Of a DNA stretch of 64,000 nt, positions 2,468 to 63,992 are shown one piece after another; position 1 is the first letter of the stretch; each line of letters starts with the position of its first letter. This DNA is from an uncultured bacterium (GTDB lineage Bacteria; CAZDME01; JAYEMH01). Below the pieces are notes generated by a model. That model did no database searches, was not told where the DNA came from, and saw nothing but the letters and a program-made list of their open reading frames with translations. Position numbers and translations under genes: made by a program. The stretch lies in contig CAZDKO010000004.1 in NCBI GenBank assembly GCA_964506075.1, forward strand, positions 134 through 64,133. Direction: 5' to 3'.

Positions 2468-3442
2468 CTATTCTAAAACTTCCTTCACCACGTAAATCGG
2501 CTTTTCCTGCGTTTCGTGGTGGGTGCGAACCATCATCTCCCCTAAAAGACCCAGGCTGATAAATTGAAACCCGAGAATAATCAAAAGGATGGCTAATAAT
2601 AAAAGCGGACGGCCGGCAATACTCTGCTGAAAAAAGAGCCTGAGAACGGAGAGATACAAAGCAATCACAAATCCCAGGAAAGAAAAAATCACCCCCATCA
2701 GCCCGAATATCTGCATGGGGCGGGTCGAAAAACTCATTAAAAACTTAACCGTAAATAAATCAAGGAGGACTCTCATCGTCCGGGAAATGCCGTATTTGGA
2801 TTTTCCTTTAGTCCGGGGATGATGTTTAACTTTTATTTCGGCAAAGGTTATTCCCCGGATGCTCGCCAGAGCCGGAATAAAACGGTGCATCTCGCCGTAA
2901 AGATTTAAAGATTTCACCACGTCCTGACGATAGGCCTTAAGGGTACAGCCATAATCGTGAAGTTTCACTTTACTGACGTGGGAAATAAGAAAATTAGCCA
3001 TCTGGGAAGGCAGCCGTCTGGTTAAAAAGGGTTCTTTGCGGTCATAACGCCAGCCGCTGACCAGGTCATAACCCTCTTTCATCTTATCCATTAATTTCTT
3101 GATGTCTTCCGGGTCATTTTGTAAATCGGAGTCAAAGGTCATAATAATCTCTCCCCGGGCATAGTCAAAACCGGCTGAAAGCGCGGCCGTCTGGCCGAAA
3201 TTTCTCCGGAAAGAAATAATCTTGATATGGCGGTCATGCTGATGAATCTTTTTTAACATCTCCAGAGAACCGTCGCTGCTTCCGTCATTAATCCAGATTA
3301 TTTCGTAACTCTGGTTAAGTTGAGAGAGCGCGTCCTTTAATCTCTGATAAAGAGGCAGGATGTTTTCCTCTTCGTTATAAACAGGAATAACGATTGATAA
3401 ATCTAAAAGTTTCCCTTCGTTAGATAATTTTTCTTTTTCCAT
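2468..3442 (-). CDS. Polyisoprenyl-phosphate glycosyltransferase, GT2 (GtrB/ArnC/DPM1-like, with C-terminal TM helices)
   Basis: 324 aa. IVIPVYNEEENI, DGSSDGS and DSDLQNDP (DXD) match GT2. Two C-terminal TM helices are present (IFGLMGVIFSFLGFVIALYL; LLLLAILLIILGFQFISLGLL). GGGAGA RBS precedes ATG 3442. Confidence 0.8.
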   Translation of the reverse strand: MEKEKLSNEGKLLDLSIVIPVYNEEENILPLYQRLKDALSQLNQSYEIIWINDGSSDGSLEMLKKIHQHDRHIKIISFRRNFGQTAALSAGFDYARGEIIMTFDSDLQNDPEDIKKLMDKMKEGYDLVSGWRYDRKEPFLTRRLPSQMANFLISHVSKVKLHDYGCTLKAYRQDVVKSLNLYGEMHRFIPALASIRGITFAEIKVKHHPRTKGKSKYGISRTMRVLLDLFTVKFLMSFSTRPMQIFGLMGVIFSFLGFVIALYLSVLRLFFQQSIAGRPLLLLAILLIILGFQFISLGLLGEMMVRTHHETQEKPIYVVKEVLE

Positions 3443-3451
3443 CTGCTTCTC

Positions 3452-3582
3452 CCATTAGTTAACTGGTGAGCGGTGAGCAGCAAATAGTCGTTAGTGAATA
3501 GTATCTAGTATTTAACAACTACTAAATACTAACGACTAGCGACTAAATACTTAATAACCCACCCTGTTCACTACTCACCATA
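3452..3582. repeat. Long quasi-palindromic spacer built from GGTGAG / TAGTNNN words and their complements
   Basis: GGTGAGC GGTGAGC (3465-3478) opposes CTCACC (3574-3579). TAGTCGTTAGT (3485-3495) is the exact reverse complement of ACTAACGACTA (3528-3538). AGTATTTA (3507-3514) pairs with TAAATACT (3523-3530). The 17-mer TAAATACTAACGACTAG (3523-3539) recurs at 16776-16792. Confidence 0.85.
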
Positions 3583-3584
3583 TC

Positions 3585-60973: not shown

Positions 60974-62128
60974 CTACTCCAAGGCAGCTTTTAAAGCGTT
61001 ATCAAATATCTTAGTCCAGTTATACTTTTCAGAAAATTTTAAGGCATTGTTTCTATAGGTCTTCAGGAGATTATCATTACTCAATAATTTTACTATCGCT
61101 TCAATCAATTCATCTTGATTATAATTAACGGCAAATCCGCATTTATTTTCTTCTATTTCCGCGGCTACCGATGGCACTTTAGTTATTACTACCGGTAAAG
61201 CTGAAGCTAAATACGCTTTGGGTTTCCCGGGGTCGGCATACTTTGTAAAAGTTTTTTCATCATCAACATATGGCGCTACGGCAATAGCACATTTTGAAAG
61301 TTTATTTTGAAGCTCGCCGTGGTCTTCTATGTATCCGGTAAATTTCACTTTATCAGTCAGCCGTAAATCTCTGACCTGTTCTTTAAGCTTCTCTTCAAGA
61401 GGACCGGTACCGATTATTAAAAGCTTTACCTGTGGAATTCTATTAATAATAGCAGGCAGAACGCTGATTAAAAACTCCACCCCCTGTTTTTCTCTTAAAT
61501 GCCCCATAAAAGCAATTTCGTAGCGGTTTATTTCGTCAAACGGAAGCTTTGGCGCTTTAGAATCTGTCCCTATAGGAACTACCACCTGTTTAGAACGGTA
61601 TTTTTTTGAAAGGCCGTTTTCTTCTCTCCCCCTTAACATCTCACCTGACAGATTCCATGTCTGGTCACAATTTTTAACACAACAGGAATCTAACCAATGA
61701 TAAAAATTATTCAGCAGCTTATTCTTAAACCTGACCGGTATGTAATCAATCGTATAAAAAATAATTTTTCTTACTATTCCTAATTTTTTAAGCAGCAATC
61801 CGCTAAAAGCATTTAAACAATCGGCTCCAACGTATAAGTCGGCTTTAAAACCATTTATCAAAATCAGCCATAAAGTTAAAAATGTATCTTTAAAATGAAA
61901 TAATAATCCGGGTAAACCCAGAACCGGATAATTTTTTTCTTTTATTAATTTCCCGCCATGATATTTTTTCAAAAAAGGGTTTTTTACTTCACAATAAGAA
62001 AAAGGCAGCCCCACAAAATTCAGCTCTTTAATTTGCTTATTTACCAGATATTTCTCCAGTTCCTGCGCCGGACCGGTAGCAAATACATGCGAAACGATAA
62101 CAACTTTTAAATCCTTTAATTTCTGCAT
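60974..62128 (-). CDS. Glycosyltransferase family 4-like (tandem paralogue B)
   Basis: 384 aa. FMGHLREKQG...LIIGTGPLEEKLKEQ...VKFTGYI; YADPGKPKAYLASALPVVITKVP matches YADPTKVKIYLACGLPVIITKVP in paralogue A. Confidence 0.7.
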   Translation of the reverse strand: MQKLKDLKVVIVSHVFATGPAQELEKYLVNKQIKELNFVGLPFSYCEVKNPFLKKYHGGKLIKEKNYPVLGLPGLLFHFKDTFLTLWLILINGFKADLYVGADCLNAFSGLLLKKLGIVRKIIFYTIDYIPVRFKNKLLNNFYHWLDSCCVKNCDQTWNLSGEMLRGREENGLSKKYRSKQVVVPIGTDSKAPKLPFDEINRYEIAFMGHLREKQGVEFLISVLPAIINRIPQVKLLIIGTGPLEEKLKEQVRDLRLTDKVKFTGYIEDHGELQNKLSKCAIAVAPYVDDEKTFTKYADPGKPKAYLASALPVVITKVPSVAAEIEENKCGFAVNYNQDELIEAIVKLLSNDNLLKTYRNNALKFSEKYNWTKIFDNALKAALE

Positions 62129-62149
62129 AACGTTTTAATTAGGAATAGT

Positions 62150-63061
62150 TTAATCTTTCCTTGCCTTTATTACCATAATACTACCTTGACCAAGAATTGA
62201 ACAAATAGCGTTGAGAGGCAAAAAAACAGGAAAAAGAAGAAGCATGAATATTAACTTACATTTCAGATTTATTTGACAAGGAAACCTATCTTCCCAAAAA
62301 TCTAATAGGCTTCCAGTCCAAAGTTGAGGATGGAAAAAAGAAAATTTGATTTTTTCTACCGTAAAACCTGCTTTAAAAAGAAGATTTGAAATTGTTTCAG
62401 GAGTAAAATGATAAAGATGGCGGGGAACAGAAAAATACGACCATTCTTTTTGAAAAAATTTACGTTCCAAGCTCGCAAAATTCTGTAAACTCAAGATTAA
62501 TATCCCCTTTTTCTTGAGAATCCGACGGGTAATCTTTAATGTCTCCAGAGGGTTGAAATCGTGTTCTAAACAATCCCAAAAGGTCATGACATCAAAGTAT
62601 TCGTCTGGCCAATGGGTATCTCTCAACTCACCACAAAAAGCAGTTAGACCACATCTATTTACATATTCGCAAGCACTCTCATCAATATCCACACCATAGA
62701 CTTCATAACCTCTATCTCTCTGCCTGACTAAAAATCGACCGGTACCGCAACCAACATCCAACAGCCGACCATTTTCTTTCAAAGGGATTTTTTTAGTTAA
62801 GTGTTCTTGAATTTCCTTCAAGGACTCAAACAATTTTGATAGCCAACTCATCCCCGGTTTCATATACTGTTTTTCATAATGGATTTTTAAAGTCTCTTTA
62901 ATCGGACGGGGATTCAAATAGACTAATTGACAATTCTCACACTGAACAATATTCCATTCTCCAGTGAGATGGGAAGTCCATGATCTATCCTCCAGAGAAA
63001 AAAGAAGTTTGGCTTCATTCTTACCACACAGATTACAATCTACCTCTTCAATATCTAACAT
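62150..63061 (-). CDS. Class I SAM-dependent methyltransferase with N-terminal Cys4 zinc-ribbon
   Basis: 303 aa. CNLCG...[11 protein letters not shown], then [11 protein letters not shown] and VYGVDIDE. Confidence 0.8.
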
Positions 63062-63992
63062 AGATTTTTTGGTACCACTCTATGGTTTTCTTTAATCCTT
63101 CTTCAAAATCGGTTTTAGCCTCGAATCCAAATTCTTTTTTGGCGCGGCTGGTATCCAAAAATCTTCGCGGTTGTCCGTCGGGTTTGGAAGTATCCCATAC
63201 TATTTTACCTTTAAAACCGGTCAATTCAATAATCAGTTCGGCTAAATCTTTAATGGAAATTTCAAATCCGGCACCGATGTTTACCGGTTCCGGTTTATCG
63301 TATTTTTCCGTCGCTAAAATAATCGCCCGGGCACAATCCTCAACGTATAAAAACTCCCTGGTCGCCTTACCTGTTCCCCAGATAACAATGTTGTCTTTAC
63401 CTTCTCTTTTAGCGTCAAAACATTTTTTTATTAAAGCGGGGATAACATGAGACACCCGGGGGTCAAAATTATCCCTGGGCCCATAAAGGTTGACCGGCGT
63501 CAGGAAGATGGCGTTAAAGCCATACTGAATTCTATAAGCCTGCGCCTGGACCAGAAGCATTTTTTTAGCCAGGCCATAGGGGGCGTTAGTTTCTTCCGGG
63601 TATCCGTCCCAGATATTTTCCTCTTTAAAAGGCACCGGGGTAAATTTAGGATAACAACAGACCGTTCCGAGAGCCACAAATTTTTTTATCCCTCTTTTTC
63701 TTCCCTCCTCCATTAATTGCACGCCCATCATCAAATTATCATAAAAAAATTTACCGGGGTTTTCTTTGTTTGCCCCTATACCCCCGACTTTAGCCGCCAG
63801 ATGAATGACAATATCCGCCTTAGCCTCATCATAAGTTCTTTTTATCGCCTCCATCTCGACTAAATCGTAATTTTCGATTTTAGGCACGAAAATATATTTA
63901 CACTTTTTCTCCTGAAGCTTTTCAATTACAAAAGAACCGAGAAAACCGTTCCCCCCGGTCACCATAACTCGTTTGTTTTCCCAAAAAACCAT
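63048..63992 (-). CDS. fcl: GDP-L-fucose synthase (GDP-4-keto-6-deoxy-D-mannose 3,5-epimerase/4-reductase)
   Basis: 314 aa. Collinear with my recollection of E. coli Fcl: [62 protein letters not shown]...REFLYV.D, SKPDG.PR..LD. Confidence 0.9.

Follow-up and report, generated by a model that had tools for sequence, protein, structure and literature searches.

A stretch of 64,000 nucleotides from an uncultured bacterium (contig CAZDKO010000004.1 of assembly GCA_964506075.1, positions 134 to 64,133), referred to here as the window, encodes ten proteins that are supported as membrane glycosyltransferases of the GT-C type, together with three candidate synthases for polyprenyl-phosphate-linked sugars, two candidate flippases for such lipid-linked sugars and a Wzm/Wzt polysaccharide exporter. 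At a rough probability of 0.55, we regard this locus as a very large multi-component transmembrane glycosylation system that acts on an ABC-transporter-dependent polysaccharide pathway. The nearest named relatives of the window proteins share 57-64% identity with them and belong to a Candidatus Ratteibacteria metagenome-assembled genome (MAG), and the source organism appears to be a Ratteibacteria-like, diderm bacterium of a candidate phylum. All 48 open reading frames (ORFs) of at least 150 amino acids that tile the window, from 727 to 63992, are located on the minus strand, just as a sequence-only reading of this DNA had described a unidirectional locus, and the sole plus-strand ORF (48369-48839) is nested inside 48027-51980. 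Neighboring frames overlap or are separated by 30 nucleotides or less at 33 of 48 junctions (with the likely start of the 26400 protein at 27548), coding density reaches about 95% across the window, and only four intergenic gaps exceed 150 nucleotides. The GC content lies at about 36-44% along the window, except for 32.5% in the first 2 kb (1-2000). Reads that match the locus are contained in the sequencing runs SRR10178537 and SRR10178538.

The same reading had counted about 11 GT-C candidates, one of them (26400) with a question mark. Proteins are designated here by the lower coordinate of their reading frame (Table 1). A polytopic core with about seven to 13 or more transmembrane helices was taken as the criterion for GT-C topology. 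All 11 candidates are indeed polytopic, with nine to 12 hydrophobic segments each, and the helix maps of the AlphaFold2 models of 40290 and 42911 agree with these counts. Ten of the 11 are supported as GT-C glycosyltransferases by profile, paralogy and structure comparisons and fall into four subfamilies, whereas 26400 could not be confirmed and stays outside. Five candidates exceed the gathering score of Pfam GT-C models (5783, 20388 and 24562 for PMT_2; 48027 and 52888 for GT-C_AftD). For 17767, 26400, 28403, 40290, 42911 and 46025 a direct Pfam GT-C match is absent even at an E value of 10; five of these six lack any Pfam match, and 28403 matches only F5/8 type C and tetratricopeptide repeat (TPR) models. 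The candidates were sorted into paralogue groups by all-against-all BLASTP. Sequence searches against the PDB with 40290, 42911, 52888, 24562 and profile A1 (introduced below) yielded nothing meaningful, and fold comparison alone was successful. All ten supported enzymes carry an acidic motif directly after the first transmembrane helix (GDEG, GDALEY, DSD, DTD, GD in three proteins, GGVDFD in two, and GDEPHY), and we infer that the Asp/Glu residues of this loop 1 are catalytic. That most of the polytopic proteins are transporters or polymerases and not glycosyltransferases is largely refuted and must be considered highly improbable. The lack of classifiable relatives of 26400 and the six candidates without a direct Pfam GT-C match would be in line with such an assignment, but five candidates pass curated Pfam GT-C thresholds and the other five are tied to GT-C enzymes by paralogy, profile-profile matches and two structure models. 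The check by profiles and structures that the sequence-only reading had proposed thus did not move most of the proteins into non-glycosyltransferase families but assigned ten of them to GT-C.

The PMT_2/ArnT-like subfamily comprises 5783, 20388, 24562 and 28403. The last of these is 33% identical to 20388 over 644 amino acids (BLASTP, E value 9e-98) and is therefore classified as a PMT_2-type enzyme, for which the F5/8 type C domain and the TPR region are an additional gain. The F5/8 type C (discoidin) domain of 20388 is a putative glycan-binding domain. Two further enzymes, 48027 and 52888, are AftD-like and 50% identical to each other over about 650 amino acids; in 48027, a large periplasmic region is closed by a C-terminal transmembrane helix. 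Their match to GT-C_AftD is just above threshold and spans only profile positions ~385-544 of 661, and a phmmer search gave no match to the AftD chains in the PDB. Within the core of 52888, the C-terminal half can be aligned with the profile of the 40290 family (hhalign probability 93.8%).

This family belongs to group C (17767, 40290 and 46025), the members of which resemble PTPS_related, DUF6311 and YfhO proteins. Homologues of 40290 are numerous (1473 at an E value of 0.001 or better), and an alignment of 36 sequences, A1, was built for the family. When its members were rescanned with Pfam, PTPS_related was detected in 14 of 36, the F5/8 type C domain in 12 of 36 and PMT_2 in a single sequence, while Asp42 of 40290 proved invariant in all 36. 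The AlphaFold2 model of 40290 has a mean predicted local distance difference test (pLDDT) value of 90. When it was compared with the PDB by Foldseek, the best 24 matches were without exception GT-C enzymes (E values from 1.5e-8 to 0.13), namely DPY19, STT3, AglB, PglB, ArnT, AftA, Pmt4 and EmbA/B, and transporters follow only below them with probabilities of 0.13 or less. The second member, 17767, aligns with A1 over 535 columns (hhalign probability 99.9%, E value 1.2e-31) and matches 46025, 40290 and 42218 by BLASTP, and the orthologues of the third member, 46025, in two related loci (L003 and L004, see below) yield Pfam YfhO matches. The small protein encoded at 42218 is related to two tandem repeats of 17767 (residues 592-871; E values 2e-17 and 1e-7). 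Because of this paralogy, the domain can be stated to occur both fused to a GT-C enzyme and as a free-standing protein beside 40290 and 42911. The 42218 protein has no family match, its position is kept in L003 and L004, and it is possibly an accessory or acceptor-binding subunit.

The fourth subfamily is represented by 42911. None of its 138 homologues has a precomputed Pfam domain, a rescan retrieved weak PMT_2 matches in three of 40 members, and similarity to the NCBIfam LA_3751/LA_3752 putative glycosyltransferase (9e-10) is below cutoff. A profile of 40 sequences of this family, A2, aligns with A1 at a probability of 94.5% (hhalign), and the motif G-D-E-P-x-Y (residues 214-219 of 42911) is invariant in all 40. 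In the case of the AlphaFold2 model (pLDDT 85.6), the best 17 Foldseek matches are all GT-C enzymes (ArnT, ALG12, ALG9, AglB, ALG3, PimE, PglB, AftA and DPY19), and transporters appear far down the list with probabilities of 0.13 or less. These alignments fall on the C-terminal ~440 residues; the first ~200 form an extra extension with several transmembrane helices. The start of the 42911 gene is overlapped by 40 nucleotides by a gene for a VanZ-like protein, as is also the case in L003 (4282-4788) and L004 (6863-7366), so that translational coupling of the VanZ and GT-C genes is conserved across three loci.

For the eleventh candidate, 26400, a word-indexed search of 5.8 billion sequences returned only the protein of the window itself (P0241) and one further sequence, P0242, with 50% identity, and a full HMMER search of 1.8 billion representatives had P0242 as its only match. 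No match was obtained in Pfam or NCBIfam at an E value of 10 or 0.1, nor with profiles from the PDB. Only residues 3-59 of 26400 have a counterpart in the 40290 subfamily, in that they share a module of transmembrane helix, beta-hairpin and transmembrane helix (GG.sF....IS.HSL..P) with an insertion present there (residues 322-388 of 40290; hhalign probability 89.7% over 56-57 residues, hmmsearch E value 1.2e-9 against the window proteome).

The neighboring GT2 genes support the view that the ten GT-C proteins would use lipid-phosphate-linked sugars on the extracytoplasmic face of the membrane. Three GT2 proteins (2468, 22483 and 39604), already proposed as polyprenyl-phosphate sugar synthases in the sequence-only reading, are present, and their best NCBIfam matches are lipid-phosphate sugar synthases throughout (ArnC, PgfS, AglJ, Dol-P-hexose transferase and PpgS). 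The 2468 protein matches ArnC over its full length (249 bits) as well as PgfS, both below the equivalog cutoffs, and has two C-terminal transmembrane helices (248-266 and 280-298), while 22483 and 39604 are limited to the catalytic domain. Two of the three genes adjoin GT-C genes: 39604 overlaps 40290, a pairing that is kept in L003 and L004, and 22483 lies between 20388 and 24562. The adjacent gene for a DegT-family aminotransferase makes it likely that at least one of the GT2 donors is an amino sugar. Two UPF0104/MprF-type proteins (8775 and 16835), which share 44% identity, are candidates for flipping polyprenyl-linked sugars. A true Arn module at 22483-28383 was considered and rejected, as the deacetylase of family CE4 encoded there resembles PgaB/IcaB and not ArnD, and ArnA and ArnE/F are absent. 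Glycolipid synthesis of the GpgSDF/HexSDF type, which combines a GT4, a deacetylase and a UPF0104 protein (PMC12713373), was likewise not adopted, because the respective genes are not adjacent in the window and the CE4 protein carries a signal or anchor.

The export and envelope components that had been read from the sequence, i.e., Wzm/Wzt, an outer-membrane barrel, a CE4 deacetylase and a TolB-like lipoprotein, are all present. The Wzm and Wzt genes yield NCBIfam matches to TagH and to the galactan exporter Wzt, and for the CE4 protein the best NCBIfam matches are PgaB and IcaB, with ArnD not among them. Taken together with the GT-C and GT2 enzymes, the flippase-like proteins and the signal peptide of the deacetylase, these components fit the extensive periplasmic glycan elaboration that had been envisaged.

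On this basis, the following sequence of events can be proposed for a multi-component glycosylation system. The sequence and structure comparisons establish the identity of the enzymes, from which we infer the succession of events, the sugar donors and acceptors and the part played by the flippases. In the cytoplasm, the GT4 enzymes, perhaps together with the GT9-like protein, would build a polyprenyl-diphosphate-linked backbone, drawing on nucleotide sugars that have been tailored into amino, acetylated, methylated, amidated and 6-deoxy forms. The C-terminal domain of Wzt would read a terminal modification, probably methylation, and Wzm/Wzt would export the chain. In parallel, the three GT2 enzymes would form polyprenyl-phosphate-linked monosaccharides, which the UPF0104 proteins would flip across the membrane to serve as donors. 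The ten periplasmic GT-C enzymes may then transfer the lipid-linked sugars to the exported glycan via Asp/Glu of loop 1. Their discoidin, TPR and large periplasmic domains would direct them, and several enzymes would share each donor but form different linkages, branches or chain extensions. Finally, the CE4 enzyme would de-N-acetylate the polymer, which would then reach the surface through the AlgE-like barrel or in another way. In function, such a system would resemble the assembly of arabinan and mannan in mycobacteria, or a number of Gtr/Csb-type systems at work on one polymer. With three donor synthases for ten transferases, shared donors and linkage-specific enzymes are likely, which points to polymerization and branching rather than to ten separate side-chain decorations; decaprenyl-phosphate arabinose serves the Aft and Emb enzymes of mycobacteria in this manner. 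Going further, a whole heteroglycan domain might be polymerized and branched outside of the cytoplasm by at least ten GT-C enzymes with three lipid-linked donors, on a primer exported by Wzm/Wzt, with UPF0104 flippases and with two GT-C families that lack a characterized member (group C and the family with the GDEPHY motif). This would constitute an independent, non-actinobacterial counterpart of mycobacterial arabinan and mannan assembly, a tentative idea that we put forward with some doubt.

Several points weigh against a single system of this kind. Only three GT2 enzymes are available for ten GT-C enzymes, and all NCBIfam matches of the former are below the equivalog cutoffs. Four gaps exceed 150 nucleotides, and genes for PEBP, RibD_C and a REP-associated tyrosine transposase (RAYT) lie inside the locus, which may indicate several transcription units or pathways. 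Regarding the flippases, ORFs of at least 150 amino acids in the window gave no Pfam match to GtrA, SMR or MATE, and a small GtrA-like ORF is absent from the left edge (small ORFs elsewhere were not scanned). Flippase activity of the UPF0104 proteins on polyprenyl-linked sugars is putative, and even for GpgF such a role has only been predicted (PMC12713373). The window lacks Pfam matches for an initiating phosphoglycosyltransferase of the WecA/WbaP type (Glycos_transf_4, Bac_transf) and for WaaL/Wzy_C; such genes may lie elsewhere in the genome, since the window takes up nearly all of its 64.7-kb contig. Finally, the best structural neighbors of group C, DPY19 and STT3, are protein-modifying enzymes, and the presumed acceptors of the GT-C enzymes are deduced from accessory domains alone.

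The last point leads to glycosylation of proteins. The GT-C enzymes could O-, N- or C-glycosylate S-layer proteins, pilins or other envelope proteins with lipid-linked mono- or oligosaccharides, and Wzm/Wzt would export the lipid-linked glycan donor. Protein O-mannosyltransferases are members of the PMT_2 family, the TPR region of 28403 resembles TMTC-type enzymes, and DPY19 and STT3/AglB/PglB are the closest structural neighbors of the 40290 model. Furthermore, a search for the pattern WWDxG in all 11 proteins gave a single match, WWDTG at residue 761 of 52888, located in the periplasmic region; by our rough estimate, about 0.03 matches are expected by chance over the 11 proteins. However, the pattern is absent from the other nine GT-C enzymes, including the paralogue 48027, and from 26400, and Pfam did not detect an S-layer or pilin gene in the window. 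The group C relatives with a characterized Pfam family are of the YfhO type, i.e., teichoic acid decorators (PMC8035078), and the discoidin domains and the AftD-type architecture point to glycan acceptors (10.1101/2019.12.22.885152). The broad protein or S-layer glycosylation that the sequence-only reading had named as an alternative is not supported by these data, and we consider it improbable.

Information about the genetic environment of related genes was revealing in two respects, the conservation of the locus and its modularity. In L004, a contig of the Candidatus Ratteibacteria MAG, the gene order is that of the window: a giant AftD-like protein is followed by YfhO-like, VanZ, 42911-like, a ~220-amino acid protein, 40290-like, GT2, RibD_C, Wzm, Wzt, a 146-amino acid ORF, two GT4s and the flavoenzyme. 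L003, a JGI contig, keeps this order as far as PEBP, which it contains in addition and just after which it ends. At 7479-9922 it differs by a carbamoyltransferase gene and two small ORFs that are inserted between the genes for the 219-amino acid protein and the 40290 orthologue, which suggests that the glycan is O-carbamoylated specifically in this lineage. Scans with 28403 did not yield sister sequences for the half of the window at 17.7-31.4 kb: a single-protein scan of metagenomes found no close relatives, and an alignment-based scan found only relatives with 34% identity or less. A promoter and terminator scan of 35-48.5 kb gave site counts near shuffled expectation, so that these do not inform on operon structure; the gap upstream of wzm contains one sigma-70-like site. 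An Rfam scan of the window returned no family at gathering score.

These data also bear on the view that the window is a glycan island in which independent envelope-glycosylation modules with different acceptors are merely co-located. Candidates for such modules are ArnT-like modification of lipid A/core or another lipid, YfhO-like decoration of a different polymer, a Wzm/Wzt-dependent O-polysaccharide and an AlgE-exported exopolysaccharide, and some paralogues may be interchangeable and give rise to surface variation. Cassettes of DegT, GT2 and PMT_2(F5/8C) genes without detectable Wzm/Wzt within ~22 kb (L105, L090 and L088) imply that modules are separable. The four gaps of more than 150 nucleotides with the sigma-70-like site upstream of wzm, the interspersed, unrelated PEBP, RibD_C, RAYT and VanZ genes, the carbamoyltransferase insertion in L003 and the frequency of tandem paralogues in related loci are also in accordance with an island. 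On the other hand, the fact that all 48 genes point in one direction and that 33 of 48 junctions measure 30 nucleotides or less speaks for a unit, the stretch from AftD-like through group C, GT2, Wzm/Wzt and GT4s to the oxidoreductase forms one conserved block in L004, and terminator-like sites are not in excess in the region scanned. In our judgment, an island of independent modules is unlikely, and we keep to one large transmembrane glycosylation system as the preferred interpretation.

In order to judge how unusual the density of GT-C genes is, we scanned 159 loci with home-made HMMs for the four GT-C subfamilies, which are an incomplete GT-C detector, so that the counts are lower bounds. 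The first sample comprised 80 loci from GTDB species representatives with a group C gene and 10 kb of flanking sequence on each side; a single GT-C gene was found in 52 of them and the maximum was four. For the second sample, 79 metagenome loci were collected around relatives of 20388 and 28403. Of these loci, 20 were at least 15 kb long and contained one GT-C gene in 12 cases, two in six cases, and four and six in one case each. The locus with six, L105 (Ga0184637_10000022, 36044-57888), extends over 22 kb and has four to five GT2-like ORFs in addition to its six GT-C ORFs, and in L090 four GT-C genes are arranged in tandem within 11 kb. The window has ten GT-C genes in 50 kb and no more than five in any 22 kb. 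At a GT-C background rate of 1%, which is our own assumption, the binomial tail for ten GT-C genes among ~49 genes is 6e-11. Dense metagenome loci reuse genes for DegT, short GT2, PMT_2(F5/8C), group C, SPASM radical SAM (S-adenosylmethionine), AsnB, methyltransferase and epimerase proteins, and the cassettes are repeated in unrelated contigs (L105, L090, L088 and L109). The exceptional concentration of GT-C genes that had been claimed for the window therefore holds in that this is the largest case seen, but it is not unique: the window is of a recurring modular type.

Table 1. Genes and gene blocks of the window, ordered by position, with the evidence for their assignment
Feature	Coordinates	Strand	Evidence or remark
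SIR2_2-domain protein and HEAT-repeat protein with a single transmembrane (TM) helix	727-2340	minus	low-GC left edge
GT2, ArnC/GtrB-type candidate polyprenyl-phosphate sugar synthase	2468..3442	minus	Pfam Glycos_transf_2, 131 bits
TolB-like PD40 beta-propeller lipoprotein	3585..4502	minus	Pfam PD40 x4; lipobox FMAGC
Cytoplasmic GT4 (GT-B) glycosyltransferase	4499..5668	minus	Pfam Glycos_transf_1, Glyco_transf_4
GT-C number 1, PMT_2/ArnT-like, motif GDEG	5783..7516	minus	Pfam PMT_2, 39.7 bits vs cutoff 26.1; 11 TM segments
AlgE-like outer-membrane beta-barrel with signal peptide	7449..8750	minus	Pfam Alginate_exp, 80.8 bits
UPF0104/MprF-type membrane protein, candidate lipid-linked sugar flippase	8775..9752	minus	Pfam LPG_synthase_TM, 148 bits; NCBIfam TIGR00374 above cutoff
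Tailoring block: hexapeptide acetyltransferase, SDR (short-chain dehydrogenase/reductase) epimerase/dehydratase, SAM methyltransferase, radical SAM/SPASM, B12-radical SAM, AsnB-type amidotransferase	9749..16707	minus	Pfam, NCBIfam
Second UPF0104 flippase-like protein	16835..17770	minus	LPG_synthase_TM; TIGR00374 above cutoff; overlaps 17767 stop
GT-C number 2, group C, core of ~580 aa and two C-terminal repeats	17767..20391	minus	hhalign, BLASTP
GT-C number 3, PMT_2 and C-terminal F5/8 type C	20388..22352	minus	PMT_2, 48.9 bits; F5_F8_type_C, 42 bits
Short GT2 without TM helices, candidate polyprenyl-phosphate sugar synthase	22483..23190	minus	Pfam; NCBIfam ArnC, PgfS, AglJ, Dol-P-hexose transferase
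DegT-family (LegC/PseC-like) sugar aminotransferase	23206..24321	minus	Pfam, 426 bits; NCBIfam LegC, 400 bits
GT-C number 4, PMT_2, loop-1 motif GDALEY	24562..26400	minus	Pfam PMT_2, 54.3 bits
Unclassified polytopic protein, 382 aa from likely start	26400..27548	minus	not confirmed as GT-C
CE4 polysaccharide N-deacetylase, PgaB/IcaB-like	27556..28383	minus	Pfam Polysacc_deac_1; N-terminal signal or anchor
GT-C number 5, PMT_2-like with F5/8 type C and TPR region	28403..31360	minus	paralogy; Pfam F5_F8_type_C, TPR weak
FAD oxidoreductase (PRK07208 family), then two GT4s	31384..35064	minus	Pfam, NCBIfam; block kept in L004
Wzt (ABC ATPase and Wzt_C glycan-binding domain) and Wzm (ABC-2 permease)	35648..37700	minus	Pfam ABC_tran, Wzt_C, 104.8 bits; ABC2_membrane
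Short GT2 without TM helices, AglJ-like	39604..40293	minus	NCBIfam; end overlaps 40290 start
GT-C number 6, group C, motif GDPLLN.W	40290..42221	minus	AlphaFold2/Foldseek, homologues
226-aa single-TM protein	42218..42898	minus	paralogous to 17767 C-terminal repeats
GT-C number 7, family without Pfam model, motif GDEPHY	42911..44851	minus	AlphaFold2/Foldseek, profiles
VanZ-like small membrane protein	44812..45351	minus	Pfam VanZ
IS200-type/REP-associated tyrosine transposase (RAYT)	45351-46013	minus	Pfam Y1_Tnp; NCBIfam REP_Tyr_transpos, 77 bits vs cutoff 80
GT-C number 8, group C/YfhO-like	46025..47776	minus	BLASTP to 40290, E values 2e-25 and 6e-16
GT-C number 9, AftD-like, 1317 aa	48027..51980	minus	GT-C_AftD, 30.3 bits vs cutoff 26
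SAM methyltransferase between the two AftD-like genes	51995..52888	minus	Pfam
GT-C number 10, AftD-like, 958 aa	52888..55764	minus	GT-C_AftD, 34.8 bits vs cutoff 26
Upstream cytoplasmic block: weak GT9-like, three SAM methyltransferases, B12-radical SAM, two GT4s, GDP-fucose-synthase-like SDR	55761..63992	minus	Pfam, NCBIfam

The cytoplasmic enzymes of the locus amount to five GT4s, one weak GT9-like protein, six SAM methyltransferases, two SDR enzymes, two B12-radical SAM enzymes, one SPASM radical SAM enzyme, one AsnB-type enzyme, one acetyltransferase and one LegC/PseC-like aminotransferase. The oxidoreductase and the two GT4s that follow it are candidates for cytoplasmic backbone synthesis, and the flavoenzyme, of the PRK07208 family, shows weak similarity to UDP-galactopyranose mutase. 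The radical SAM enzymes are encoded on the minus strand at 12334-14833 and 57650-59164. In L105 and L088, the SPASM enzyme and AsnB co-occur with PMT_2(F5/8C) genes, a hint that sugars may undergo an unusual C-methylation or another radical reaction.

Among the genes that are not recognizable as part of a glycan pathway, those for PEBP (YbhB-like) and RibD_C (dihydrofolate reductase-like) are located at 37976-39285 on the minus strand between Wzm and the GT2/GT-C pair. The position of RibD_C is kept in L003 and L004 and that of PEBP in L003; neither has an obvious role in glycan synthesis. The RAYT gene stands in line between 46025 and the VanZ gene and is absent from L003 and L004, from which a recent insertion into the operon is probable. 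At the left edge, the region at 727-2340 probably marks the limit of the glycan locus. The SIR2_2-domain protein encoded there has weak PADLOC SIR2 matches and is possibly a defence gene product, while the HEAT-repeat protein corresponds to an ORF of 131 amino acids at 1945-2340.

To our knowledge, extracytoplasmic glycan assembly by many GT-C enzymes is textbook knowledge only for Actinobacteria, while elsewhere these enzymes are seen as single decorators. A locus with ten GT-C genes that comes from a candidate phylum and is composed of a cassette recurring in other uncultured bacteria suggests that glycans are built in the periplasm on a large scale more widely than the model organisms would lead one to expect. 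The window provides entry points to two uncharacterized, structurally supported GT-C families, one of them with more than 1400 detectable homologues, and it assigns to UPF0104 proteins a candidate function in the flipping of lipid-linked sugars. To glycoengineering, the locus offers GT-C enzymes, carbohydrate-binding modules (CBMs) and donor synthases in diverse combinations and in a compact form.

The combination of genes invites comparison with mycobacteria, in which galactan is exported by Wzm/Wzt and the GT-C enzymes AftA-D and EmbA-C then use decaprenyl-phosphate arabinose. The two systems are alike in that many GT-C enzymes would share few lipid-linked donors in order to polymerize and branch a glycan domain outside of the cytoplasm and that an ABC transporter would export the acceptor backbone; in addition, a weakly UDP-galactopyranose mutase-like flavoenzyme is encoded beside the backbone glycosyltransferases in the window. 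The two AftD-like proteins of the window resemble mycobacterial AftD in their N-terminal GT-C core, large periplasmic region and C-terminal transmembrane helix (10.1101/2019.12.22.885152). By contrast, the window lacks a UbiA-type DPPR synthase (Pfam) and a GtrA-like Rv3789, nothing in it was identified as DprE1/DprE2, its donors would come from GT2 enzymes, an AlgE-like barrel is present, and the similarity to AftD is partial.

The closest multi-component systems are Gtr of Salmonella and Shigella, CsbB/GtcA/YfhO and GacI-L of Gram-positives, and ORF12-15 of Citrobacter youngae with GT136. In three- or multi-component transmembrane glycosylation, a GT-A lipid-sugar synthase and a flippase cooperate with a GT-C enzyme that acts after export (PMC8035078, PMC11127046). 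As in the window, some of the GT-C enzymes are of the PMT_2 and YfhO types and GT2 and GT-C genes are adjacent. Some also carry CBM-like domains, and an O-polysaccharide that depends on Wzm/Wzt can be the substrate on which such a system is placed (PMC8035078, PMC11127046); the discoidin domains of 20388, 28403 and 12 of 36 group C homologues, and likewise the TPR and large periplasmic domains of the window enzymes, are comparable to the CBMs that AftD, Emb and GT136 carry (PMC11127046; 10.1101/2019.12.22.885152). However, one GT-C enzyme per module that adds single side-chain sugars contrasts with ten GT-C and three GT2 enzymes in the window, GtrA/SMR or MATE flippases contrast with UPF0104/MprF-type candidates, and two of the four GT-C subfamilies of the window are uncharacterized.

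The Arn pathway shares with the window a trio of DegT, ArnC-like GT2 and ArnT-like PMT_2 proteins, found at 20388-26400 and recurring in other loci. It differs in that the window contains neither ArnA (no formyltransferase) nor ArnE/F (no SMR pair), its CE4 protein is PgaB/IcaB-like and not ArnD, and its aminotransferase is nearest to LegC/PseC; moreover, the discoidin domains of the window enzymes suggest glycans rather than lipid A as acceptors. With ABC-dependent O-polysaccharide export of the Escherichia coli O9a type, the window has Wzm and Wzt with a Wzt_C domain in common, and its many SAM methyltransferases could cap the terminus. On the other hand, no WbdD-like terminator was identified and no WaaL or initiator is encoded in the window, an AlgE-like barrel is present, and far more enzymes would act after export than in the O-polysaccharide loci described so far. 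PMT, TMTC, STT3/PglB/AglB and DPY19 enzymes share the GT-C_A fold and acidic residues in loop 1, they are the best Foldseek neighbors of the group C model, and 28403 adds a TPR region, but WWDxG occurs only once, in 52888, and not in its paralogue 48027, the sequences searched have no detectable similarity to PDB chains, and the accessory domains of the window enzymes suggest glycan acceptors.

The sequence-only reading, which knew of no described pathway of this design, is overstated in this respect, as the design has been described for multi-component systems (PMC8035078, PMC11127046) and the underlying logic, AftD included, for mycobacterial arabinan (10.1101/2019.12.22.885152). In a strict sense, the locus is a member of neither the Gtr, the Arn nor the arabinan systems; it probably represents a known mechanism that is used at an unusual scale and with partly uncharacterized enzymes.

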